Shown here piece by piece: positions 2,614 through 60,249 of a stretch of 64,000 bases of DNA. The stretch is from Fimbriiglobus sp. (GTDB lineage: Bacteria > Planctomycetota > Planctomycetia > Gemmatales > Gemmataceae). The stretch is from contig JANXWE010000066.1 of assembly GCA_025351325.1 (NCBI GenBank), positions 807 through 64,806 on the forward strand, given 5' to 3'. The notes beneath the pieces were generated by a model that ran no database searches, was not told the DNA's origin, and saw only the letters and a list, made by a program, of their open reading frames with translations. Position numbers and translations under genes: made by a program. Numbering within the stretch: position 1 is the first letter of the stretch; each line of letters opens with the position of its first letter.

Positions 2614-5103
2614 TCAATTCCCGCTCGGCCCACGGGTGATCTTGAACTCGTCGATCCCCGAGAGACGCTTCTTCACGCCTTTCTCGGAGGAGTCGATCTC
2701 GAACTGTCGCTTGATGTCCGATTCGACGATCATCCCCGTGTCCTCTTCGATGAGAACCATTCCTTTGACGGTGCCGGACGCGCTGCCCGCAGCCGCACCG
2801 CCCATCGGACTGATATTCCCTTCGACGCTTACCACGGCTTCGCGTCGGCCCAAGCGTTCCCGGATACCGAGGTAGGTGTAGGTGATCTCTTCTTGGAACG
2901 CGTACTCTTTGACTTTGACCTTGGTTCGATTTTCCAGCCTGTCCACTTCGCCACTTTGAAACGCGAAGCGTAAATACTTGGTCACTTTCCAAGTGTCGCC
3001 CGAATTCATTTTTTTATTCGGTAATCCAATGGAGCCTTCGTGGAGCGTTTCGATCAACTCTTGGCCTTGGCTCATGTAGAGTTGTTTCAGCGGAGAACTA
3101 TCCGGGATGTTGAACGTCTGCACGAGCATCTTCGTGATTTCGCCGTTGCGGAGGAACGTCCCCGTCGCGGTCACGAGTTTGATGCCGGCGTTGATGAATT
3201 CGATGATCTCTTTTGGCGCGGGAATCTCTTTGTTGCCGCGTTTGATCTTCAAATCCATCGAGTCGAACCGGTAGAGTACTTTTGCCAGCGTCGATGCGTC
3301 GGCGGGCTTCCCGAGTTCTTCGGTCAACTTGAGCGTCTGCTGCAACAGCAGCTTCGTCTCTTTTTCAGCACCCTCCCCGTCTTCGAGCTGCTGGAGATCG
3401 CTGACGCGGACGACCGTGATCGGGCGTTTGCTGCCGATTTTGAACCGAGCTGTGAGGTCGGTCGCTTTGCGTTCGTACGCCGGCCCCGACAGTTTGACCA
3501 AGTTGCCCGCCATCCAACGCTTCGGAACCGAGGTACTCGAAAAGTACGGTTGGCTAAAATAAGATTTGCCCGCTTCTTGCGCCGGGTAAACCAGTTCCCC
3601 CGTGGCCACTTGCTTTTCGGGATCGTAGGTCATTTTCACTTCGAGCAGATTGGAGTCATCCGGCTTCACCAAGCGTTCGTCGCCGGGAGAACGCACCGAG
3701 TCGCCAGCATCACCCAGCCAACAGGCCATCCCGATTTCTTTGAGCTGCTTGCGCGGGTCGAGGCAATTCACTTTGACGGGCACGTGCGTCTTCCCGTCTT
3801 GCAGGAACGCGGCACCATACTCCACATTGGCGATCCGGCCGGCAATCAAACCCCGAACATATTCCGTCGGCACGCCGTAGGCGATATTCGTGAACCGTCC
3901 TTCGCTGTCCAAGTCCACCCGCACGGCCACCGCCACGACGGCACCATCGCCATCGCAGATCGGCCCACCCGAATTCCCGTGGACGAGACCGCCTTGAACC
4001 TGCACCGAGTACAGGTCGCCGAAAGTGTCTTTCCGCAAGGCCTGCACTTTTGTTTCGCTGATCGTGACCGTCGGTGGATCTTCACTGCGATTACGTTCGG
4101 CGATCCGCCGGCCACCGGGGTAGCCGAGCACCGTCAGTTTCTCCAAACGTTCCAGCTCTTCCGACGGACGAGTTTTTAGCGGCTTTGGAAGGTTCGATTC
4201 GTTGATGATTTCAAGCAACGCCAAATCCATGTCACGGTCGACCGCGAGGAGTTTGACCTTGGCCCCCTCGAACTTCTGCTGCTTACCCTTCTCGCCGGGG
4301 TCGACAAAGATGGTGATCTTTTTGGGTTCTTTGCTGCCGGGAGCCTTCATTCCCAGCACGTGGGCGTTGGTTACAATCAAATTGTTGTCCAGTCCGAACC
4401 AGCCGGTACCGGAACTGCCGCCACCGCGTTGATCTTCGATTTCGATGTAGACCGTGGCGCGCGTCATTTTGTCGAAGGTCGCTGCGTCCGGGGTATCCCT
4501 CCGCGTCATCGGTTTCACATCGACCGGTTTCGGCTCGATGGGCTTGACCGGTTTCGTTTCGGGCGGCTTGACTTCGACCGGTTTGGTTTCGGGTGGTTTC
4601 GTCGCCGTCGACGCCTGCGTCTCCGGTTTCACCGGCGGGTTCGGCTTGATTTCTGGCACCGTCGGATTCACAACGGGTGCCGGTGGTGTGACGTCGGTCG
4701 GCACGGGGGACGCTGCTGCTACGACCTTGGGATCGTCCTTTTTCAGGGCGAAGTAGGCGGCGACCGAACCGGCACCGAGGAGTACAACCGCGCCGACTCC
4801 CGCCATGATCAGAAGTGGCATCTTCGACTTCTTCGCGGCCTTCACAGGCTGCTTGCGATAGCGTGGGGCTTCGTCCTCGTCATCTTCCACGACGATGTTC
4901 TTCTTCACCGCTTTGATCACCGGTACGGCCTTCGCCACCGGCACCGCCTTCGCCGCCGCTTTCGCAACGGGTGCCGGGACGGCTTTGGCTTGCGGCACTC
5001 GGACGGTTTCGTCGCACTCTTCGCAGGCCACGGTTTTTCCCGCTCGGCTTTCCGGCGCTGAAAACTTGTGGCCGCAGTCTTCACAGGTCACTCGAATGGG
5101 CAT
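2614..5103 (-). CDS. membrane-anchored trypsin-like (S1C/HtrA-type) serine peptidase with N-terminal zinc ribbon
   Basis: N-terminus CEDCGHKF...VACEECDE, then an AKAVPV low-complexity stretch, a TM helix and a KP/ETKPV repeat linker. The protease core has TNAHVLG, DLALLE and HGNSGGP (His/Asp/Ser). About 400 aa of C-terminal domain is unassigned. Confidence 0.8.
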   Translation of the reverse strand: MPIRVTCEDCGHKFSAPESRAGKTVACEECDETVRVPQAKAVPAPVAKAAAKAVPVAKAVPVIKAVKKNIVVEDDEDEAPRYRKQPVKAAKKSKMPLLIMAGVGAVVLLGAGSVAAYFALKKDDPKVVAAASPVPTDVTPPAPVVNPTVPEIKPNPPVKPETQASTATKPPETKPVEVKPPETKPVKPIEPKPVDVKPMTRRDTPDAATFDKMTRATVYIEIEDQRGGGSSGTGWFGLDNNLIVTNAHVLGMKAPGSKEPKKITIFVDPGEKGKQQKFEGAKVKLLAVDRDMDLALLEIINESNLPKPLKTRPSEELERLEKLTVLGYPGGRRIAERNRSEDPPTVTISETKVQALRKDTFGDLYSVQVQGGLVHGNSGGPICDGDGAVVAVAVRVDLDSEGRFTNIAYGVPTEYVRGLIAGRIANVEYGAAFLQDGKTHVPVKVNCLDPRKQLKEIGMACWLGDAGDSVRSPGDERLVKPDDSNLLEVKMTYDPEKQVATGELVYPAQEAGKSYFSQPYFSSTSVPKRWMAGNLVKLSGPAYERKATDLTARFKIGSKRPITVVRVSDLQQLEDGEGAEKETKLLLQQTLKLTEELGKPADASTLAKVLYRFDSMDLKIKRGNKEIPAPKEIIEFINAGIKLVTATGTFLRNGEITKMLVQTFNIPDSSPLKQLYMSQGQELIETLHEGSIGLPNKKMNSGDTWKVTKYLRFAFQSGEVDRLENRTKVKVKEYAFQEEITYTYLGIRERLGRREAVVSVEGNISPMGGAAAGSASGTVKGMVLIEEDTGMIVESDIKRQFEIDSSEKGVKKRLSGIDEFKITRGPSGN

Positions 5104-5288
5104 AGATCCCTCGCCGATTGGCTGACGAACGAAAATTAGGTAATACGAGTTTATCGTAGGCCGAACGAAGTCGTTGCAACAATTGTCCGGAGATTTCCGA
5201 CGCGTCTCCAGCTACAAGACGATTATAATCGAACAATAGATGTCCCGAAATGGCGGGCTACTCGGTTTCGCATTCCAAAGGTCTTCCC

Positions 5289-10642: not shown

Positions 10643-11242
10643 TTAATCCTGGCTGGCCACCACTTGTTCACTGCCGGTGGATTCGGGATCGAGCAAGTTC
10701 CGCAATTCGAGCCGCGCCCGGTGCAATCGGCTCCGCACCGTGCCGATGGGCACCTTCATCAACTCCGCGATGTCATCGTATTTCAAACCGTCGATGTCCT
10801 TCATGAGCAACACCGCCCGGTGCTCGACCGAGAGTTTCAAGATCGCCGCCGCCAACATCCGCTCGTCTTCGGTTCGTTCCAGTGCGGAATCGGGGGCCAC
10901 ATCGGCCGAGCGATCTTCCGGGTCGATACCCGCCTCACCGTTTCTACCAACCCCGGCATCCAAGCTCACCACGGCTCGCTTCCGACGCTTGGCACTGATC
11001 GCCGTGTTGAAGGCGATCCGGTAGAGCCAAGTGAAGAACTCGGCGTCGCCTTTGAAGCTGGCCAGCGACTGGTACGCATTCACAAAAGCATCTTGAACGA
11101 CATCCAGGGCATCGTCGGGGTTGTCCATCACCCGGTTGGCCACGTGATAGAGCCGATCCTGATACCGCACCACCAGCTCTCCGAAGGAAGCGGTTTTGCC
11201 GGCCAGTGCTTCCGAAATCAGGCGTCGATCATCTGGATTCAC
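10643..11242 (-). CDS. ECF-type RNA polymerase sigma factor
   Basis: Region 2 (DDALDVVQDAFVNAY, FFTWLYRIAFN) and region 4 (LKYDDIAELMKVPIGTVRSRLHRAR) are present. GTG start at 11242. Confidence 0.9.
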   Translation of the reverse strand: MNPDDRRLISEALAGKTASFGELVVRYQDRLYHVANRVMDNPDDALDVVQDAFVNAYQSLASFKGDAEFFTWLYRIAFNTAISAKRRKRAVVSLDAGVGRNGEAGIDPEDRSADVAPDSALERTEDERMLAAAILKLSVEHRAVLLMKDIDGLKYDDIAELMKVPIGTVRSRLHRARLELRNLLDPESTGSEQVVASQD

Positions 11243-11259
11243 GTCGTTCTACACACCGA

Positions 11260-11285
11260 GACGCGGGTTCATGCCCAAAAGTTCC
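11260..11285 (-). promoter_or_regulatory. ECF-type autoregulatory promoter candidate for the sigma/anti-sigma operon
   Basis: The minus strand reads GGAAC (11285..11281), 17 nt, CGTC (11263..11260), about 18 nt upstream of the GTG start. This matches the common GGAAC-N16/17-CGTC ECF pattern. Confidence 0.4.
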
Positions 11286-11463
11286 CGATTTCCCGCAAAT
11301 CGATTCCACCGCTGGAAGTCGGACGTTAAACCCGGCCAATAATGTCGTTGCGTCTGATAAGCTATCAAATTTCCGGGTGGGACAGCTACTGCGATTGTCC
11401 GATCCGTACTATTCAATTGTACTCAGATTCGTTTTATTTCGTCGGAGAGGCTCGCCGAGCATC

Positions 11464-14400
11464 ATGGACAACCCGACCATTCAGGTTCGCGGCGCCCGCG
11501 AACACAATCTTCGCAACGTCAACTTAGAACTTCCCCGGAACAAATTGATCGTTTTCACCGGGGTCAGCGGTTCCGGCAAAAGTTCGCTCGCCTTCGACAC
11601 GTTGTACGCCGAGGGACAACGTCGGTACGTCGAAAGTCTCTCCAATTACGCCCGGCAGTTCCTTGGCCAACTCCCCAAACCCGACGTCGACTATATCGGC
11701 GGTTTGTCGCCGGCGATCAGCATCCAACAAAAAAGTGCGGCACGAAACCCGCGCTCGACCGTCGGCACCGTCACCGAGGTTTCGGACTATTTGCGGGTGT
11801 TGTACGCCCGCGTCGGCCTGGGGCATTGCCCGAATTGCAGCCGGCCGATTGCCGCCCAAACGCGAGAACAGATCCTGGGTCGGATTGCTGCGCTGCCAGA
11901 GGGAGCGCGGTTCAGCATTCTTGCGCCCGTGGTGCGTGGACAAAAAGGAGAGTTCAAAGATTTCTTCGCTGACATGGTGAAGCGTGGCTACGTTCGTGCC
12001 CGCGTCGATGGCGAAATTGTCCGTATGAGCGACGATCTCCGGCTCGACAAAAAGATCAAGCACTCTATCGAGATCGTCATCGACCGGCTGCAATTGAAAC
12101 CGACCGACGGCGCCCAACGCGTGCGGATGGCCGAAGCGGTGGAGCAAGCGCTCGCCCTCGCGGAAGGGAACGTCATCATTTCGGTGGAGCAAGAGATCGC
12201 GTCGGAAACACGCAAACCGAAATCCGAAATCCGATATTCCGACATCCTCTTGTCCGCCCACTACGCCTGCACGCATTGCAGCATCAGCTTCGAGCCGCCG
12301 ACCCCGCAACTCTTCAGCTTCAACAGCCCGATGGGGATGTGCCTCGTGTGCGAAGGCCTCGGCCGCGTCCACAGCTTCGCCCACGAATTGCTCATCGCCG
12401 AACCGACCAAAAGTCTGAGCGACGGTGCGATTCCCCTCGTCGGGGCCGTCAAAGGGATGGGCCGCTGGAAAAAGCACATCTACGAAGGCGTGGCCACCTC
12501 GCTCGGCCTCGACCTCAAAATGCCCTGGAACAAAATGCCGACCGAGCAGCAGCGGCTCTGGTTGCAGGGTTCCGGCGACCGGCACATCGTGTGGGAGTGG
12601 AAGCAGCGCGGCGGCAAGGTCTGGAAACATAGCGGCAAGTGGGAAGGGATCATCCCTCAGCTCATCGGCCAGTTCAAAAAAGCGACCGCCGGCCCGCGGC
12701 GGATGCAGCTCGAAAAGTACATGCGAGTGCAGAACTGCACCGCGTGCCAGGGGGAGCGGCTCAACCCGCAAGCCCGCGCCGTGCGCGTCGGGGATCAAAC
12801 CATTGTGCAAGTCGGCCACATGCCCATCGGCGATCTCGTGCCGTGGTTCGGCACCATGGAAAAAACGTTGACCGCCGTTCAGCGATTCATCGCCGGGGAA
12901 CTGCTCAAAGAGATCCGCTCCCGGCTCGGCTTCCTGCTCAACGTCGGCTTGCACTACCTCAGTCTGGATCGTTCTGCCCCGACCCTCTCGGGGGGCGAAG
13001 CCCAGCGCATCCGCCTCGCCGGGCAGATCGGTTCGGGGCTAGTCGGCGTGCTCTACATCCTCGACGAACCGAGTATCGGCTTGCACCCGCGCGACAACGA
13101 GAGACTGCTCGCCAGCCTGTTGCACCTCCGCGACATGGGCAACACGGTGCTGGTGGTGGAGCATGACGAAGAGACGATGCGGGCCGCGGATTACCTCGTT
13201 GATTTCGGCCCTGGCCCGGGCGTTCGTGGCGGCGAAATCGTCGCGGCGGGTTTACCGAGCGAGGTGCTGGCCAACCCGAACAGCCCCACGGGGCAGTACC
13301 TCACCGGTGTGAAGACGATCCCGATTCCGAAGAAGCGGCGACCGGTCTCCGACAAGGCCATCAAAATCGTCGGGGCCAAGCACAACAACTTGAAAAATGT
13401 GGACGTGAGTATCCCCCTCGGCGTATTCGTTGTCGTCACCGGTGTCAGTGGCAGCGGCAAGAGTTCGCTGATCAACGACGTGCTCAAGTGCGGATTTGGG
13501 ATTTCGGATTTCGAATTGGAAGAGGAAGACAGCGAAAGTGATGCCGAGCTGCCGACATCCAATTCCGAACTCCGCAGCCGGGTGGAACGGATCGAGGGTT
13601 TCGACGCGATCGACAAGTTGATCGACATCGACCAAGCGCCGATCGGGCGGACGCCCCGTTCGAACCCGGCGACCTACATCAAAGTCTGGGACGAGATTCG
13701 GACGCTCTACGCCAACATGAGCGATGCCAAACTGCGGGGCTACAACGCCGGGCGATTCAGTTTCAACCGCCCCGGTGGCCGCTGCGAGGCGTGCGAAGGC
13801 AACGGCTCCAACAAGTTGGAAATGGACTTCCTCGCCGACGTCTGGGTGACCTGCCCGATCTGCGAGGGGCGCCGCTTCAACCACGAAACCCTCCAGGTGA
13901 AGTACCGCGGCAAGAGCATCCACGACGTGCTCGAATTGGAAGTCGGCCAGGGGGTGACGCACTTCGAGAACGTCCCCAAAGTCCACGCGATGTTACAAAC
14001 TCTCCACGATGTGGGCCTCGATTACATCAAGCTCGGCCAGCCGTCGCCGACGCTCTCGGGGGGCGAAGCCCAGCGGGTCAAACTCGCCAAGGAACTCTGC
14101 CGCAAGGGGAGCGGCAAGACGCTGTACATCCTCGACGAACCGACCACCGGGTTGCACTTCGAGGACATCCGCAAGTTGCTCGAGGTGCTCCACGGCTTCG
14201 TCGATCAGGGCAACACCGTCCTCGTGATCGAGCACAATTTGGACGTCATCAAGACCGCCGATTGGGTCATCGACATGGGGCCGGAAGGGGGCAGCACCGG
14301 CGGGCAACTCGTGGCGTGCGGAACCCCGGAAGCGTTGACCAAAGTGGCCGCGTCGCACACGGGGCAGGCCCTGTTGCCCGTGCTGTTCCCCAAGAAAGCC

Positions 14401-17400
14401 AAGGCCAAAGCGGGGAAAGTTCGCAAGGCTACCGCGGCTCCGCTCCAAGTGGAGATGACGCACCTCGAAGTCGAGGGGGCGTCGCAGCACAACTTGAAAA
14501 ATGTGAACGCCCGCATCCCCCGCAACGAGATGACCGTCTTCTGCGGGCCGAGCGGCTCGGGCAAATCGTCGCTGGCGATGGACACCATTTACGCCGAGGG
14601 GCAGCGCCGGTACGTCGAAAGTTTGTCGAGCTACGCCCGGCAATTTCTCGGGCAGGTGCAGAAGCCACGCGTCGAAAGCATCACCGGATTATCGCCCGCC
14701 ATCGCCATCGAACAGAAGACCACGAGTAAATCGCCACGCTCCACCGTCGGCACGATTACCGAGGTCTACGACTACCTGCGCATCTTGTTCACGCGGGTGG
14801 GCCAGCGCTTTTGTCCGCACTGCCAGATCCCCATCGGCACCCAGACGAAGGACGAGATCGTCGAGAAGATCTTGGGCCTCCCGGAGGGGACCAAGCTGTA
14901 CATCCTCGCGCCGTTGGAGCGCAAGGGGCAGGAGAAATACGACACCGTCTGGGAGGAAATCCGCCGGTCGGGTTTCGTGCGGATGCGCGTCGATGGCAAG
15001 TCGTACGGCGTCGACGAGCCGCCGGAAATCGACCACAAGCGGAAGCACAAGATCGAAGTCGTCGTGGACCGCAACGTCGTCCGGCCCGGCACCCGCACCC
15101 GCATCGCGGACGCCGTGGAGCAGGCCCTGAGCCTCGGCCTGGGGGTCATGCACCTCGCCTACGTCGATCTCGACCGCGATGAAACGCTCTGGAAAGTGGA
15201 GCGGTTCTCGCAGCATCTCGCCTGCGACCAGTGCGGGCGGAGCTACGAGCAACTCACCCCGAACAACTACAGCTTCAACAGCCCGCTCGGGTGGTGCCCG
15301 ACTTGCGAAGGCTTGGGCGTCCAGCGCGGTGCCAGCGTGGCCCTGCTCATCGGCAACCCCAAGCTCAGCGTCCGCCAGGGGGCCATCGTCGCCTGGCCAC
15401 GCCCTGACGCAAGCAGCCCGTGGCTCCCGTTCGCAGCCGGTATCGCCGCCCACGTCGGCTTCGACCTCGACACGCCGTACCAAGATCTCGATCCCATCCA
15501 CCAGCGGGCGATCCTCCAAGGGACGGGCGAGGCCTGGATCACTTTGATTTCGGATTTGGGAATGAGGATTTCGGATCCGAAATCTAAGAAATCGAAGAAG
15601 CCTGCGAAAGGTGATTCCGACAATCCCAAATCCGCAATCCCGAATCCGAAATTCCAATACAAGGGTCTCTTCCCCGCCATCGACGAAGCGTCCCGCGTGA
15701 GTTACCAGTACCGGGCGCGGCTCGACCACGTCGTGGACGAGGTGCCCTGCGTCGCCTGCCACGGCGGGCGGTTGCGGGCCGATGCTACGGCCACGCGCTA
15801 CTTGAACCAGACGATCCGCGAAGTCTGCGCCCACCCCATCGGCATCATGCTCCGACAATTCGAAGCGGTGACGTTGGCGGACGCCGAGCAGAAAGTCATC
15901 GGGGAAGTGCTGCGGGAGATCATCAACCGCGTCAAGTTCCTCGTCGACGTCGGCTTGGAATATTTGTCGCTGGATCGCCCCGGCCCGACGCTGTCCGGCG
16001 GCGAAGCGCAGCGGATTCGACTGGCCTCGCAGATCGGTAGCGGCCTGACGGGTGTGCTTTACGTATTGGATGAACCAACCATCGGCCTGCACCCGCGTGA
16101 CAACGCCCGCTTGCTGAAAGCGCTGCATCATCTCCGCGATCTCGGCAACACGTTGCTGCTCGTGGAACACGACCGCGAAGTGATCGCCTCCGCCGATTAC
16201 CTGTTCGACTTCGGCCCCGGTGCCGGCCGGCATGGTGGGGAAATCACGGCCGAGGGAATCCCAAGTGCGGTGCTGAAATCGAAGGCGTCGCTCACGGGAC
16301 AGTACCTGTCCGGCAAGCTCGCGATCGCGGTACCCACGAACCGCCGCATCCATCGCATCGAGCCGAAGAAATTCATGCAGCACGCCGATGCCACCGTTGC
16401 CGAACTCCGGGCAGCATTCCAGTTCCCGCACAAGAGTTTCCTCAGCGTGCTCGGCGCCCGGCACCACAACCTGCGCAACGTCGATGTCCACCTTCCACTC
16501 GGGGCGTTCGTCGTCGTCACGGGGGTGAGTGGCTCCGGGAAAAGTTCGCTCGTCAACGAGGTGCTCTTCAACACCTTGGCGCGGCGGTTGAATCGCGCCC
16601 GCACCACCGGTGCGGCTCACGACGACATCACCGGCATCGAGAACATCGACAAAATCATTCGCGTCGATCAAGACCCGCTCGGTAATTCCCCGTCGAGCAA
16701 CCCGGCCACCTACACCGGTGTCTTCGACCTCATCCGCGAGCTGTTCAGCCGGATGCCTGAATCGAAAGTTCGTGGCTATCCGCCGCGACGCTTCAGTTTC
16801 AACCAGAAAGGCGGCCGGTGCGAAGCGTGCGAAGGCAACGGCCAAAAGAAGATCGAGATGCATTTCCTCCCCGATGTCTGGGTCGAGTGCGACACCTGCC
16901 ATGGCACACGGTACAACCCCGAAACGCTGGCCGTGCAGTACCGCGGCAAGAGCGTCAGCGACGTGTTGAATCTGCCCGTCGATGACGCGCTCGAACTGTT
17001 CGGCAACATCCCCAAGATCCGGGTGATTTTGCAAACGCTCTCCGATGTCGGCCTGGGTTACATGCAGCTCGGGCAGCCGGCACCGACCATGAGTGGCGGC
17101 GAAGCGCAGCGGGTCAAACTCGCCGCGGAACTCGCCCGGCCCAGCACCGGCAAGACGCTCTATCTGCTCGACGAGCCGACGACCGGGCTGCACTTCGACG
17201 ACGTTAAGAAGCTGTTGAACGTGCTCCACCGGTTGACCGATCTGGGCAACACGGTGATCGTGGTCGAGCACAATTTGGACGTCATCAAGACGGCCGATTG
17301 GATCGTCGATATGGGGCCGGAAGCCGGGAGTGGCGGTGGCGAAGTGGTTACGTGTGGCACTCCGGAAGCCGTCGTTCAATTCGCGGATGCCCACCCCGAG

Positions 17401-18492
17401 TTGCCGCTGTACACGAGCCGCGCTTTGAAGCCGGCGCTGGTAGCCGGGCCGTTCGCCGAACGCGAGCGATACGATGCCAAGAAGGCGCTCGCCAAGAAGC
17501 TCGGCGACCTCTCTCTCGACGACGTCGGCAAGGATCAGAAGTTGCCCTGGGAAGCGAACGGGATCCAGTGGCACACGCGGGATCGCATCACCACCAAAGG
17601 CTCACCCTGCAAATGGGACGGGGCCGCGTTGCTCGAGGTCATCACGGGAATTGAGCAACTCGGCAACTTCAGCGATACCGTCTGGGAGCATCGCAGCATC
17701 GTGGAAATCCCAGCCGCGAAGAAATCGCTCGGCTGGTTCTTGCACGCCATGACCGGGCACGAGGCGTACTTGAAACTCGTCTTCCGAGTCGCCCGCAACA
17801 CCTTCAAGCAGGCCACCCTGGTGGAGAAGTTAGCCCTGCGACCGCTCAGCGATTATCCCGGCCACGAGGGGTACGCCCGCGATCACCGCGTGGAAGTCTC
17901 GAACCCGCGTGGCCCGTGGCAAGAAGTCGTTGTGACCATCGTGAAAGTGGCCGAGGTTCAAGTGCCATCGTTTCGAGAATTTTTGAAACAGGCGGCCGAT
18001 TCGTTCCTCGCGGCGACTGCCAAGACCGACGGAGCCTCGGCGGTGGATGCAGCGATGCCTTGGAAAATCAACGGCGAGCAATGGCACGTTGGCGACAAAG
18101 GCTTTCCGCCCGGCAAGAAGCCGAAATGGGATCGGGCGTTGCTACCGAAGCTCCTCCAACTTCTGCACGATGTGGAGCCAACGGCCGAACTGAAGCACGA
18201 CGTCCGCGATGCCATCACCGTGCGGCTGCCGGACATCAGCCGCTTCTGGGTGAGGATCAAGACGAAAGAAGTGGCGTCACTCGAAGTCTGGCTCGTCGCC
18301 AAACCGGGTGCCTTCAACGCTGCCCGGTTCGAAGGCGTCGGTGCGTTGGCCACGGTGGAAGCCGACCGGCAAGAAGGCTGCGCGGTCGTGAAATTGCATT
18401 TCGTGCTGGCGGAACAGCTCGCCTCCAAAAAACTCCTGCCGCTGTTGCGTGAACTGCGACAGGGATTCATCGGCTTGTTCGGCGAACCGTAA
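11464..18492 (+). CDS. uvrA: giant tandem UvrA-UvrA fusion protein with unassigned C-terminal extension containing a duplicated domain (2342 aa)
   Basis: Four Walker A sites (three GVSGSGKSS, one GPSGSGKSS) and four LSGGEAQR signatures. The zinc modules and UvrB-binding-type inserts are present in each half. I chose the ATG at 11464 ([16 protein letters not shown]) because the 11206 start overlaps the divergent sigma gene and adds junk sequence. Confidence 0.85.
12179..12240. repeat. degenerate heptamer-palindrome element inside uvrA module 1 (weak copy)
   Basis: TTCGGTGGAG at about 12180 resembles the inner end of the left arm of the 29056 element. Three AwTCCGn-type units (AAATCCG AAATCCG ATATTCC) sit at 12220..12240. 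It encodes [19 protein letters not shown]. Confidence 0.35.
13490..13576. repeat. heptamer-palindrome element inserted in frame in uvrA module 1
   Basis: Left arm is GCGGATT TGGGATT TCGGATT TCGAATT (13490..13517). Right arm TCCAATTCCGAACTCCGCA (13558..13576) is its imperfect reverse complement. Span is 87 nt (29 codons), encoding [29 protein letters not shown]. Confidence 0.7.
14455..17400 (+). other. UvrA module 2 (second complete UvrA, diverged from module 1)
   Basis: [17 protein letters not shown]... with CPHCQIP, CDQC...CPTCEG and CEACEGNG...CDTCHG zinc modules and two ABC sites. The DNA differs from module 1 at many synonymous positions. Confidence 0.8.
15550..15655. repeat. heptamer-palindrome element inserted in frame in uvrA module 2
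   Basis: Left arm is TCGGATT TGGGAAT GAGGATT TCGGATC CGAAATC (15550..15584). Right arm is ATTCCGA CAATCCC AAATCCG CAATCCC GAATCCG AAATTCC (15614..15655). It encodes [35 protein letters not shown]. Confidence 0.7.
17541..18489 (+). other. C-terminal tandem duplication of an unassigned domain (about 170 + 145 aa)
   Basis: Repeat 1 begins [14 protein letters not shown]...[11 protein letters not shown]. Repeat 2 begins [14 protein letters not shown]...[11 protein letters not shown]. Both continue into alternating hydrophobic strand-like segments. Confidence 0.6.
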
Positions 18493-25268: not shown

Positions 25269-25304
25269 GAAAAGCAACAACCCCGGCCGAGCCGGGGTTG
25301 TTGC
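25269..25304 (-). terminator. Rho-independent terminator downstream of the DUF1573 gene
   Basis: 14-bp GC-rich stem (GCAACAACCCCGGC / GCCGGGGTTGTTGC) with a 3-nt loop. On the minus strand it is followed by UUUU (plus-strand AAAA at 25270..25273). Confidence 0.7.
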
Positions 25305-25325
25305 TTCGTATGTTCCGGACGACCG

Positions 25326-27513: not shown

Positions 27514-29043
27514 CTATGCCACTTGACGGGCGGGCACGACTTGATGGTGAATCACCGCCCGCGGCAACATGAGTGTGAACCGGGTGGACGGGCCATCCCG
27601 GCCTGCCCAACGGACTTCCCCATTGTTATTTTTTGCCAACGCCCACGCGATCGACAGTCCCAAACCCCGGCCACGGCCTGCCGAGCGACCGGAGAAAAAC
27701 GGATCGAAGAGATGATCTTGAACATGTTCGTCCGGGCCGGTTCCGCTGTCATCCACGTGGATGGTCACACGGTCGAGATCGGTCGTCGCCGACAGTTTCA
27801 CCCAGCCACCTTTACCGGCCGCTTCGAGCGCATTGCGTACCAAGTGACCCAGTGCGGTTTGGACTTGCGCCGCATCGACCTGGATCGACGAATCCGCATC
27901 GGTCAGCACGAACAATTGGATGTCTTGCGCTTCCGCATCGGCTTGGAAATCATGCTGAACCCGTGCCAGTAATGTTTCCACCGAATGCGGGCTGGTCTTC
28001 GCTTGGCTGGGGCAAGAAAACTGCCGGGTACCCGTGAGCAAATCGTGAATCCGCTGGGTCTGCCGGACAATGGTTTGGAGGTGTTGGGCTTTGTCGGGGT
28101 CGGCTTCGCGGCCACGCAACCACTGGGCGTTTCCTGAAATCACCGCCAGCGGATTGTTGAACTCATGGCTTGCCCCGGCGGCGAATTCCGCGAGTGCGTC
28201 CAATTTCGCATCGCGTAGGCGATTGTCGAAATCGAGGCGGGCTTCGGCCAATTGTTCCACCAACGCGTCGATGCGATCTTCGAGCGGCGCCATCCACGCT
28301 TGTGCCGTCCGACCACGGGCTTGCGCCGTCGCTTTCAACAGGCGTGGCAACAACATTGGCTCAACGTCATACCGCACTTCGCGGTATTCAGGCGTGTCGT
28401 TGGCGGTACTGGTCGCCAGGGAATCGAGTTCCGCATCCGATTCGCGGTTCACTTTCGGGAAGTATGTCGATTCCGAAGCACGAATGGCAGCCCGTAGCAC
28501 GCGGTTGATTCCGAGATGGCCACCGAGCGTTTGAGTTTCGTCGATGGGCAAATCGAGGTAGCCGACAGCAATTTGGAACCAGAGCGGCATCCGCCAGCGT
28601 GCCAAATGCTTGCGACCGATGGACACCGCATGATCGGGTGCACCCAGATACCACCCGAGCGGGGCCAAGAGTCCGGCGCACCAGGCGGCATCGGGGGAAC
28701 AGAGTTTCGTTTCGCGTGCTAGTTTCGCAGCAATCTGGGCCAGTTGTTGGCCAATTCGAGCCGAATCACCACTCGGGTGTCCGGTCGCGTTTGGGTATTC
28801 CAAAAGCTTCGCCGCCGTTTCGCAAAGCCCGGGCTGGCACAGTGTGGCTTCGTTCAAAACAAAAGTCGTCGGGCCGGGCGTGGGGCGCGAGTAGCGCAAA
28901 ACGTGGAGGATCAGACCGGGGTCCAAGCGAAGTACCGAAGAATCGGGGGCGTCGTCCGTCAGTACCAACAGCGATGCGGAAGCCGGGCGGAGCCACGGTA
29001 CCGTGATCGCAGATGGAGCCGCCGACGCCGTACTCACCTTCAC
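27514..29043 (-). CDS. sensor histidine kinase (cytoplasmic, N-terminal HDOD-like region)
   Basis: H-box FAAGASHEFNNPLAVISGNAQWL. HATPase motifs are LVRNALEA, DDSGTGP and GRGLGLSIA. No obvious TM segment. Confidence 0.85.
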   Translation of the reverse strand: MKVSTASAAPSAITVPWLRPASASLLVLTDDAPDSSVLRLDPGLILHVLRYSRPTPGPTTFVLNEATLCQPGLCETAAKLLEYPNATGHPSGDSARIGQQLAQIAAKLARETKLCSPDAAWCAGLLAPLGWYLGAPDHAVSIGRKHLARWRMPLWFQIAVGYLDLPIDETQTLGGHLGINRVLRAAIRASESTYFPKVNRESDAELDSLATSTANDTPEYREVRYDVEPMLLPRLLKATAQARGRTAQAWMAPLEDRIDALVEQLAEARLDFDNRLRDAKLDALAEFAAGASHEFNNPLAVISGNAQWLRGREADPDKAQHLQTIVRQTQRIHDLLTGTRQFSCPSQAKTSPHSVETLLARVQHDFQADAEAQDIQLFVLTDADSSIQVDAAQVQTALGHLVRNALEAAGKGGWVKLSATTDLDRVTIHVDDSGTGPDEHVQDHLFDPFFSGRSAGRGRGLGLSIAWALAKNNNGEVRWAGRDGPSTRFTLMLPRAVIHHQVVPARQVA

Positions 29044-29055
29044 CCCTTAAACGAT

Positions 29056-29150
29056 GCGGAATGCGGAATGCGGAGTTCGGAGTGCGGAATACGGAGAGCG
29101 GTGGAGACCCTTCTTCCACTCCGCACTCCGAATTCCACACTCCGCATTTC
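29056..29150. repeat. heptamer-array palindrome between response-regulator and kinase genes
   Basis: Seven tandem units at 29056..29104: GCGGAAT GCGGAAT GCGGAGT TCGGAGT GCGGAAT ACGGAGA GCGGTGG. After an 11-nt spacer, five complementary units at 29116..29150: CCACTCC GCACTCC GAATTCC ACACTCC GCATTTC. Confidence 0.85.
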
Positions 29151-29156
29151 TCGAAG

Positions 29157-29738
29157 TCAGGCCACAGCGGCCGTTTCCATATCCAACAAACGGCACATTT
29201 TGTCGATGAGAATCTCGACATCGAAAGGTTTGCGTTCGAAATCGTCAGCCCCCGCGAGCCGCAGCTCTTGGATCTTGTCGTCTTCCACCATCCCGCTGAT
29301 GCAGATGATGCGAACTTCTTCGAGGCTCGCATCCGAGCGAACCCGCATGCAAACTTCTTTACCGTTGATGTCCGGGAGCATCACGTCGAGCAACATGATG
29401 TCGGGGCGGTACTCTTTCACCATCATCCCGGCATCGAAGCCATTGGCCGCGATCTTCACTTCGAACCGACCGTCGTCTTCGAGCAGTCGGGCGGTGACTT
29501 CGACCAATTCGGCGTCGTCGTCCACGAGCAAGACTTTGCGCTTGCCGCTTTCGAGAGCGTCGGTCGGAATCTGGTTATCCCGCATGAATCGGTACAACGA
29601 TTCACGCGGAATCCGCCGGAATTTGGAACCGGGCACCCGGAATCCTTTGAGTTGTCCGTTGTCGAAGCAGCGAATGATGGTCTGCTGACTCACCTTGCAG
29701 ATTTTCGCGGCTTCGCCGGTTGTGAATACCGTCTTCAT
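29157..29738 (-). CDS. response regulator with N-terminal excisionase/MerR-type HTH and C-terminal receiver domain
   Basis: TGEAAKICKVSQQTIIRCFDNGQLKGFRVPGSKFRRIPRESL is the HTH. VLLVDDD...DIMLLDVMLPDINGKEV is the REC domain with the phospho-acceptor Asp. Confidence 0.85.
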   Translation of the reverse strand: MKTVFTTGEAAKICKVSQQTIIRCFDNGQLKGFRVPGSKFRRIPRESLYRFMRDNQIPTDALESGKRKVLLVDDDAELVEVTARLLEDDGRFEVKIAANGFDAGMMVKEYRPDIMLLDVMLPDINGKEVCMRVRSDASLEEVRIICISGMVEDDKIQELRLAGADDFERKPFDVEILIDKMCRLLDMETAAVA

Positions 29739-54204: not shown

Positions 54205-56157
<1,953 letters not shown>

Positions 56158-56170
56158 CGACGATTTTTAT

Positions 56171-56251
56171 CCAATGCGAGCCGGTCCCCGTGAGGGGACG
56201 GGTGATCTGGTTCGCTTCACCCGTCCCCTCACGGGGATCGGCTCGCATTGG
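56171..56251 (+). repeat. 81-nt hairpin (35-bp stem, 11-nt loop) 14 nt after the dnaK stop; likely terminator and/or REP-like element
   Basis: 56171..56205 pairs with 56217..56251 as 34 Watson-Crick pairs plus one G-U. Each arm contains its own mini-palindrome (GTCCCC-GTGA-GGGGAC at 56184..56199). It is followed by GTCTATTTTA. Confidence 0.8.
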
Positions 56252-56381
56252 GTCTATTTTAGCGATTTCTCCGATCCTTTATGCACTTCATGGCTCGCTT
56301 TCCTATCATCACTTCGCCGCATGCAGGCAACGTATCCCATCAGCGTGCGGTTCGGATCACCCTGTTTTTAGGAGACGGATC

Positions 56382-59570: not shown

Positions 59571-59582
59571 TGAGCTGCGAGA

Positions 59583-59623
59583 CGGATGTCGAGCGTGGAA
59601 ACGGAAACCGCGCTCGACATCCG
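59583..59623. terminator. hairpin between convergent genes (possible bidirectional terminator)
   Basis: Perfect 13-bp stem CGGATGTCGAGCG / CGCTCGACATCCG with a 15-nt loop. There is no clear U-tract on either side. Confidence 0.4.
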
Positions 59624-59625
59624 AA

Positions 59626-60249
59626 TCACTTGCCCTTCGGCCAATAAATTTGGTGGATCTCGGCTCCGCGAGCAGCATCATAGATCTTCGCCTCAGTGCC
59701 CCACGGGACATCGTCGGCCACCGTCAAATGCATTTCTTTGCGGCCGGAGTTCCGGACGTGCTCTTTCAATTCGCGGTCGATACTATCGAGGCTCACCGAG
59801 CGGTCATCGATTTTGATGACCGTGGTACCGTTGGTGTCGAGACTCACCTTCATGCGGAAGACGCGATCTTGAATGTCTTTTTGATTAACCGAAGCCGTAG
59901 CCCCGTCGGTTGGGGCTGGTGGCAGGCTGATGGAGCGCCGCAGTGAGGTGTATGTCGCGGTCAGGATGAAGAAGATCAACAGCACGAGGGCCACGTCGAT
60001 CATCGGGTTCATGTCGAGCCGCGATTCGTCCACCGGTTCCGGTGGCGGTGGCCCCATCTCGGCCACGGCGTCGATGAAGTGCGGATGATCTTGGATCTGG
60101 ATCCATTCGCTTTCCCCCGGCCCGCGCACGTCGTCCGACGGTTCCCAGTCGCCGTCGCGCAGCCCTTCGAGAACTTTCTCGGCGTTCACCAGGGTTTCGC
60201 CTTCGGGCATGCCCAGATGCCGAACTTGCCAACTTGGGGAGGGGGTCAT
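59626..60249 (-). CDS. exbD: ExbD/TolR family biopolymer transport protein with N-terminal GYF_2-like cytoplasmic domain
   Basis: MNPMIDVALVLLIFFILT is the ExbD TM motif. The C-terminal periplasmic domain includes HLTVADDVPWG. The 75-aa N-terminus ends ...SEWIQIQDHPHF. ATGA overlap with the upstream exbD. Confidence 0.8.
   Translation of the reverse strand: MTPSPSWQVRHLGMPEGETLVNAEKVLEGLRDGDWEPSDDVRGPGESEWIQIQDHPHFIDAVAEMGPPPPEPVDESRLDMNPMIDVALVLLIFFILTATYTSLRRSISLPPAPTDGATASVNQKDIQDRVFRMKVSLDTNGTTVIKIDDRSVSLDSIDRELKEHVRNSGRKEMHLTVADDVPWGTEAKIYDAARGAEIHQIYWPKGK

Follow-up and report, generated by a model that had tools for sequence, protein, structure and literature searches.

Introduction

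The element studied here is a palindrome of about 106 nt, built from 7-nt units, that lies at positions 15547-15652 of a 64 kb stretch of DNA from the planctomycete Fimbriiglobus sp. (contig JANXWE010000066.1; hereafter the window, in whose positions all coordinates are given) and is read in frame as part of a uvrA gene. Its closest described counterparts are repetitive extragenic palindromes (REPs) found in frame inside uvrA and other repair genes, where they add 7-30 residues and often form head-to-head dimers (Di Nocera, De Gregorio and Rocco, 2013, BMC Genomics, PMC3733652). REP-tagged uvrA genes were reported in Thioalkalivibrio and for both uvrA genes of Opitutus terrae, whose 1995-aa tandem UvrA carries an in-frame REP dimer, WHGRLARVATRAKAKLTGGTPVP, with a basic centre (PMC3733652). 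REPs were defined there by a GTAG or CGTC tag, a stem of 5-13 bp, a loop of 2-20 nt and many copies per genome, and the REP-associated tyrosine transposase (RAYT) was associated with GTAG-type REPs only (PMC3733652).

A second group, described in Xanthomonas and Nostoc, consists of tandem heptamers of the types GGGNATC and GGGGATT (GGGGAYT), usually in arrays of about four (Rehm et al., 2015, PLoS One, PMC4692102). Each Xanthomonas genome holds 70-75 convergent pairs of plus and minus heptamer arrays that are able to form stem-loops; the repeats are mostly intergenic, under-represented in coding regions, and carry tracts of three to four Gs that form G-quadruplexes (PMC4692102). A third group comprises the Rickettsia palindromic elements (RPEs; Ogata et al., 2000, Science), outlined in PMC10969869 as in-frame palindromes of about 100-150 bp that are translated and lie in fold-tolerant sites of unrelated genes. 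In the literature searched we found no description of heptamer palindromes in Planctomycetes.

Here we compare the window element with these systems and with related uvrA loci. We give slightly better than even chances to the reading that it is a REP-like heptamer palindrome that stems from an ancestral insertion, is translated as part of a UvrA loop permissive enough to tolerate it, and is kept palindromic by concerted evolution at the DNA level.

Results

A palindrome of heptamers lies in frame within the second UvrA module

The host gene, an open reading frame (ORF) on the plus strand at 11206-18492, encodes a 2428-aa protein made up of two complete UvrA modules in tandem and, at the C-terminus, an extension of about 370 aa. 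The first ATPase halves begin at residue 92 (module 1) and residue 1087 (module 2). From residue 1087, module 2 aligned end to end to solved UvrA structures (E = 0), and the ORF matched the Pfam families UvrA_inter, UvrA_DNA-bind and ABC_tran. The element lies wholly inside this ORF and in frame, adding about 35 residues to the protein. A preliminary description made from the sequence had already placed an in-frame heptamer palindrome in the second UvrA module, and both that placement and the translation given for it proved correct.

The best inverted repeat consists of two arms of 30 nt each that are 87% complementary and separated by 46 nt. The left, G-rich arm on the plus strand (15547-15576; ATTTCGG ATTTGGG AATGAGG ATTTCGG AT, about four heptamers, 10 aa) includes a run of three GGRWTNN units at 15552-15572, and the right, C-rich arm (15623-15652, plus strand; ATCCC AAATCCG CAATCCC GAATCCG AAAT, 10 aa) overlaps a run of four NNAWYCC units at 15620-15647. 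Between them, the purine-rich loop (15577-15622, plus strand, 46 nt) encodes 15 aa, and AAG-rich loops are alike in orthologues. The start of the loop completes a perfect 18-nt palindrome at 15567-15584, with GATTTCGGA and TCCGAAATC as its halves (whole: GATTTCGGATCCGAAATC). The heptamer parse first proposed, from TCGGATT starting at 15550 to AAATTCC ending at 15655 with 29 nt between the two blocks of units, agrees with the sequence base for base. Its count of five forward units has to be lowered to four, as the supposed fifth, CGAAATC, is of opposite polarity and forms part of the 18-nt palindrome; the element thus has four forward and four or five reverse units.

The element differs in composition from its surroundings, with a GC content of 0.47 vs about 0.64 on either side. 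In the 64 kb, three or more consecutive GGRWTNN units (or the complement) occur only at 13492, 15552 and 15620, and such runs were absent from 30 Markov shuffles, which disposes of the concern that the heptamer periodicity might be at background level. Five palindromes with a stem of at least 14 bp were found in the window, vs 0-1 per shuffle. A stable RNA hairpin, which the preliminary description had proposed to look for, is predicted for the element at -44.4 kcal/mol, with z = -3.66, or -4.2 by separate dinucleotide shuffles; the DNA fold reached -23 kcal/mol (z = -3.2). The best Rfam match was a generic hairpin, mir-240, which at 24.8 bits vs a gathering score of 67.5 was rejected. We also set aside a G-quadruplex as the main property, because most units carry two Gs only and GGG occurs in one of the four.

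That the element is chance low-complexity sequence with no repeat-element origin has only its short length to recommend it. The absence of three-unit runs from all 30 shuffles, the five palindromes where shuffles give one at most, the z of about -4 and the homologous palindromes in relatives described below stand against it, and we rejected it on the shuffles, leaving it a probability next to nil.

The insert falls in the DNA-binding domain of UvrA. The match to PF17755 (UvrA DNA-binding, or 'insertion', domain) covers module-2 residues 293-361, corresponding to profile positions 3-70 of 110, and ends at profile position 70 exactly where the element starts. In an AlphaFold model of the surrounding 350 residues (mean predicted local distance difference test score, pLDDT, of 85), the insert is flanked by strands at residues 195-197 (WIT) and 233-235 (FQY) of the modelled query, while the inserted residues, approximately 198-232, have no secondary structure and a pLDDT of 54-60. 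Solved UvrA chains have merely a short hairpin at this site, and module 1 has a shorter, unrelated sequence of 21 aa at the homologous place, as had been stated before. On the grounds of the Pfam break, the model, the solved chains and the comparison with module 1, the element is predicted to interrupt the DNA-binding domain and to encode a loop, disordered and rich in Lys, at the tip of a small beta-hairpin. At the other end of the protein, the C-terminal extension appears internally duplicated, and its scanned part gave no Pfam match.

The insertion site is hypervariable in related planctomycetes

In a protein search, planctomycete UvrA fragments varied extremely in alignment length exactly at the module-2 insert site. 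Three of these were examined as DNA: that of a Planctomycetaceae metagenome-assembled genome (MAG) reads (CAAATCT)x6 there, and that of a Gemmataceae MAG holds a heptamer palindrome of another unit (GAGCGCG / CGCGCTC) with a similar K-rich spacer. A metagenome scan anchored on the conserved flanks provided 80 related planctomycete uvrA loci, 74 of them distinct in sequence (designated below by L numbers). Tandem uvrA genes were also seen at related loci (L123, L159 and L163).

All 80 loci, like the window, read through the site in frame and without stops, with inserts of 24 to about 174 nt. This bears on the idea that the insert never reaches the protein, either through excision from the mRNA or because the ribosome hops over it as it does in phage T4 gene 60, with the hairpin as recoding signal. 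A stable hairpin in a coding sequence is indeed a feature of known bypass sites. Because all loci keep the frame without stops, a constraint that would be unexpected in a skipped segment, we conclude that the segment is translated and rejected this alternative, which is left with a very small probability.

Only 8-13 aa are present at the site in 14 of the 74 distinct sequences, from which it follows that the insert is dispensable, and 46 have inserts of at least 20 aa. Among these 46 long inserts, 21 form strong hairpins (z <= -3); the other 25 have z above -3 and include close relatives of the window sequence. The range across about 80 lineages runs from nothing to perfect hairpins of 38 bp. 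The strongest z was found for L124 (-80.6 kcal/mol, z = -12.9, a perfect stem of 32 bp), and the window copy, with 87% complementarity and z = -4.2, is much weaker than this closest relative.

The hairpins at the site come from at least six unrelated sequence families. One is the heptamer family, made up of the window, L124, L125, L122, L128, L132 and L134; another is the GGCGAGCGGGGGGCGTGAGCCCCC family, translated as ASGGREPP...GLTPPAR, with L130, L135, L137, L148, L159, L167 and variants. Further hairpin families are represented by L142, by L162 (-140 kcal/mol), by L186, by L177, and by L189 with L192. Pure heptamer arrays that are one-sided occur at L121, L147, L202 and L196. Other simple repeats are also found in this loop: L196/L197 (1776-1947) combine several different tandem repeats in one uvrA loop, namely GGCGGGTC, CAGTTGT and CACGGAC/GACGGAC arrays, and L156 (1779-1899) has a hexamer array encoding (DR)n.

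Within the heptamer family, L124, L125, L122, L128, L132 and L134 have in common a layout of arm, (S/P)K.K.K-rich loop and arm, and flank identity to the window is 75% for L124 and 73% for L125. Because close relatives share this layout, the sequence comparison indicates that the element predates this genome. A neighbour-joining tree built from about 200 flanking residues was too short for a reliable count of independent gains and was used qualitatively only. The insert is not conserved as protein, a possibility that had been named as one that would speak against a repeat origin: relatives lack it, have it replaced or carry it with a different sequence. Across most long inserts the centre is K/R-rich regardless of the arm family, and at L138, L144, L146 and L157 the hairpin is lost yet the K-rich loop is kept.

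The arms change together

In aligned heptamer orthologues, GGA in the left arm and TCC in the right arm are invariant every 7 nt, and the four intervening positions vary. The consensus helix of 30 pairs had 90% of its cells paired, and double-sided changes were evident in 13 of the 30 pairs, a level reached in 0 of 500 shuffles; slid controls gave 1-2 pairs. Where the window has GGATT and AATCC, relatives have GGAAT and ATTCC, so that the same position differs in every unit of both arms, which is a concerted change. The GGCGAGC...CGTGAG family at the same site also shows compensatory changes, of the types G:C to C:G and G:C to A:T (CGTGAGCC / GGCTCACG vs CGTCAGCC / GGCTGACG).

Such covariation in two families is what would be expected if the hairpin itself were selected, either as an mRNA element (a pause between folding units, an RNase site or a stabiliser) or as a DNA cruciform or hairpin with a role in cis, so that structure is kept and sequence is free. 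In the same direction point the strong folds of long inserts from unrelated families, the arms that appear to have been swapped round a constant purine-rich core, and the preferential REP tagging of repair genes in other phyla (PMC3733652). However, 14 of the 74 sequences have no room for a hairpin and more than half of the long inserts stay above z = -3; the window copy is partly decayed, the fold of its sister element in module 1 is no longer significant, and Rfam gave no match. That like palindromes are found in no fewer than three further linkers of uvrA suggests tolerance rather than a positioned signal, and template switching between arms would also predict covariation. We consider selection of the hairpin unlikely, although it is the strongest of the alternatives.

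A sister element and other hotspots lie in the same gene

A sister element is found on the plus strand at 13489-13576 in module 1, in the C-terminal ATPase half just after Walker A; its left arm consists of GGATTTS heptamers, its purine-rich loop encodes an acidic stretch of 10 aa, and its right arm is decayed. It is degenerate, with arms of 16 nt that are 81% complementary, and an RNA fold of 13475-13590 gave z = 0.07, that is, no significant hairpin as a whole. From Walker A to IDQSPIG there are 36 residues in normal UvrA vs 48-96 in Gemmataceae-like relatives, some of which have clear heptamer arms round an acidic loop at the module-1 site, e.g., GLRIADRGLRMEDGDDEPEPANGDNGQSGNPQSAIRNPQ. The preliminary description had assigned the two elements to one family and to different sites, and both points stood: they share the unit type GGATTTS and occupy non-homologous positions. 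Its wording that the two halves acquired them independently, which implied events in this genome, has to be revised, as both inserts are old and common to orthologues. In other lineages both sites are hotspots with palindromes of unrelated families.

The module-1 loop also bears on the possibility that the peptide is what is selected: at the tip of the DNA-binding domain, a loop that is flexible and rich in Lys/Arg would improve DNA contact, with the arms as a mere vehicle. This explanation would fit the location of the site inside PF17755 and the K/R-rich centre that persists in hairpin-free inserts (L138, L144, L146, L183 and L193). Against it, the loops are purine-rich and read as Lys in one frame and, at the module-1 site, as a Glu/Asp run in another, which points to a property of the nucleotides rather than to selection for positive charge; many orthologues manage with 8-13 uncharged residues, and the lasting complementarity of the arms is left unexplained. 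We regard selection of the peptide as rather improbable.

A heptamer scan picked up a two-unit run of the complementary type, GAAATCC GAAATCC, on the plus strand at 12219-12232 in module 1, translated as PKSEIR. No partner arm or inverted repeat was found there, and the run may be a remnant of a third element in the host gene. The protein loop at this place is longer in module 1 than in module 2 or in solved UvrA.

Elsewhere in the 80 loci, palindromes are concentrated at three places: the inter-ATPase linker, the linker between module 1 and module 2, and the region after the last ATPase domain. The inter-ATPase linker is a hotspot at 13 loci (L128, L130, L133, L137, L148, L158, L159, L162, L170, L173, L195, L199 and L203), about 700-875 nt downstream of the main site, after ...PVPTNRR and before ...LGARQHNLKN; its longest stem, at L133, has 45 perfect bp. 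The homologous stretch of the window, approximately 16300-16440, has no palindrome. Palindromes in the linker between the modules were seen at L159 (618-661), L163 (618-703) and L188 (628-693), and just after the last ATPase domain at L186, L194 and L203 (approximately 3545-3655).

The repeat class extends beyond uvrA

In the available 64 kb, copies of the element class number one in an intergenic region and two or three inside uvrA. The intergenic copy, a heptamer palindrome at 29055-29148 with units GGAATGC, GGAGTTC and GGAGTGC, has arms of 29 nt that are 90% complementary and a loop of 31 nt. It fills the 113-nt gap between a histidine-kinase gene (27514-29043, minus strand) and a response-regulator-like gene (29157-29738, minus strand) and could act as an intercistronic hairpin of a two-component operon. 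Its unit type matches that of the L124 uvrA insert.

A stem of 40 bp (4 mismatches) round an 11-nt loop makes up another palindrome, at 56166-56256, which begins 9 nt past the stop of the ORF at 54205-56157; its GCGAGC...CGTGAG motifs resemble the uvrA-site family of L130, L137, L148 and L159. Near-perfect short hairpins were also noted at gene ends, at 25272-25306 (16-bp stem, 3-nt loop) and 59579-59627 (17-bp stem, 15-nt loop). These look like terminators and unrelated to the heptamer class.

We scanned 185,579 species genomes for four consecutive GGATTNS units and obtained at least 120 loci in many phyla, including Xanthomonadales and cyanobacteria. Many among the matches listed have a plus array followed by a minus array within 20-150 nt, and close relatives of the window are absent among the matches listed. 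GC-rich DNA yields long stop-to-stop ORFs over such arrays, so that most of the seemingly coding cases cannot be relied on, and we accepted a case only when a recognisable protein was present on both sides, judged by eye and without Pfam. By this measure in-frame arrays, with peptides such as NPKSEIRNPKS and SDFGFRISDFG, occur in planctomycete PSCyt/PSD proteins, a UvrD-like helicase, an FtsX-type permease and an aminopeptidase. The element belongs to a class of DNA elements and is not an invention of uvrA.

Two of the loci are described here individually. In a PSD/DUF1553 protein at L091 (approximately 5244-5278 and about 150 nt downstream), the arms TEWGMRNAEWGM... and ...SGIPHSELRNPQS seem to enclose a native, conserved stretch, WDVKHVIRLIVTSHTYRQ, and not a simple loop. 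At L070 (4555-4582), in a Phycisphaerae MAG, an in-frame array of the GGATT type, SNPQSEIRNPKS, lies near the N-terminus of a UvrD/PcrA-like helicase, which is another gene related to nucleotide-excision repair with the GGATT heptamer class.

The element falls outside the named families

The window element is like the REPs of Di Nocera et al. in being a short palindrome in frame in uvrA and in that the sole coding palindrome of the window is in this repair gene; O. terrae is a fellow member of the Planctomycetes-Verrucomicrobia-Chlamydiae (PVC) superphylum. Unlike those REPs, it has neither GTAG nor CGTC at the ends of its arms (15547-15576 and 15623-15652), and its 30-nt arms of 7-nt tandem units and its 46-nt loop exceed the REP sizes. 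The 2013 study, moreover, has no report of many families at one protein site or of covariation among orthologues.

With the repeats of Rehm et al. it shares the tandem period of 7 nt, the number of about four units and the convergent plus and minus arrays, which are also seen at 29055-29148. Its units (TCGGATT, TGGGAAT, GAGGATT, TCGGATC) differ from them in that one alone has GGG, so any G-quadruplex would be weak, and the element is coding and in frame in a planctomycete host. Because it has neither the GTAG/CGTC tag nor tracts of three Gs, it is not a member of the named families; it is an element outside the REP and Rehm families that works like them.

RPEs are families specific to Rickettsia that have a conserved peptide and no heptamer substructure. 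The window element resembles them in its size of 106 nt, in being in frame and in occupying a low-confidence loop between two modelled strands; it is set apart by their descriptions through its heptamer substructure and its planctomycete host.

REPIN/RAYT and IS200/IS605-type systems mobilise hairpin-forming, non-autonomous repeats without target duplication. Set beside the empty site of L173, the filled site of L167 shows a clean 66-nt palindrome with no clear target duplication, in distant lineages and for another palindrome family than that of the window. A clean insertion of this kind is what such transposases produce, whereas the 7-nt arrays point to slippage, and not transposition, as the mode of growth.

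Discussion

The explanation we favour takes the element to be a REP-like repeat, its arms being short arrays of GGA plus four variable bases and the complement, round a purine-rich loop. The insertion would have occurred in an ancestor of a Gemmataceae-like planctomycete lineage and not specifically in this genome, and it would have landed where almost any sequence is tolerated, at the tip of a loop that joins two short beta-strands of the UvrA DNA-binding domain. Transcribed and translated, it would yield about 35 disordered, Lys-rich residues that are neutral or nearly so for UvrA, and the mRNA or DNA hairpin would be a by-product of its origin and not a dedicated signal. The complementarity of the arms may be renewed when replication slips within the arrays and switches template from one arm to the other (quasi-palindrome correction). 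On top of this, a coding filter would admit only total lengths that are a multiple of 3 and units that are stop-free in three frames, such as GGATTTC and GAAATCC; such a filter would be the reason why palindromes in uvrA are found only at loops and inter-domain linkers.

Several observations weigh against this explanation. There is no sign of mobility, as neither a target-site duplication nor a transposase was met, with no RAYT/Y1 search made on the ORFs of the window. Of the five strong palindromes of the window, the one in uvrA alone is coding, the other four being intergenic, and repair genes are the only REP-tagged genes in many species (PMC3733652). At least six unrelated palindrome families occur at one site, interleaved within the clade with the K-rich core, a recurrence that exceeds what a purely passive filter obviously predicts. 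In addition, orthologues with no more than 59-75% identity in the flanking protein still have arms that are 87-100% complementary. Something maintains the complementarity, because neutral decay alone would have erased the pairing at such flank identity; either homogenisation by template switching or selection of the hairpin must act.

The recurrence also raises a bolder idea, which we put forward with considerable doubt, that at the beta-hairpin tip and the linkers of planctomycete uvrA a nucleic-acid hairpin is actively maintained or targeted, with unrelated families replacing one another while pairing is preserved. If true, uvrA mRNA or DNA would have a function that depends on its structure, or else REP-like elements would favour nucleotide-excision-repair genes in homing or gene conversion, and such a preference would provide a comparative handle on the association of REPs with repair genes noted in 2013.

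In-frame insertion of palindromes in uvrA was already known, and a single element of this kind is ordinary, being selfish or neutral DNA in a protein loop. The unusual feature is that unrelated palindromes with covarying arms recur at a single position in a repair gene. For annotation, peptides such as ISDFGFRISD, NPKSEIRNPKS, NAERGTRNAE and ASGGREPP...GLTPPAR mark translated repeat DNA and not conserved protein motifs. The uvrA loop is a natural test bed for how palindromes arise and persist in genes, by template switching or by selection, for why nucleotide-excision-repair genes are over-represented among REP-tagged genes, and for how simple-sequence DNA creates new disordered segments of proteins.

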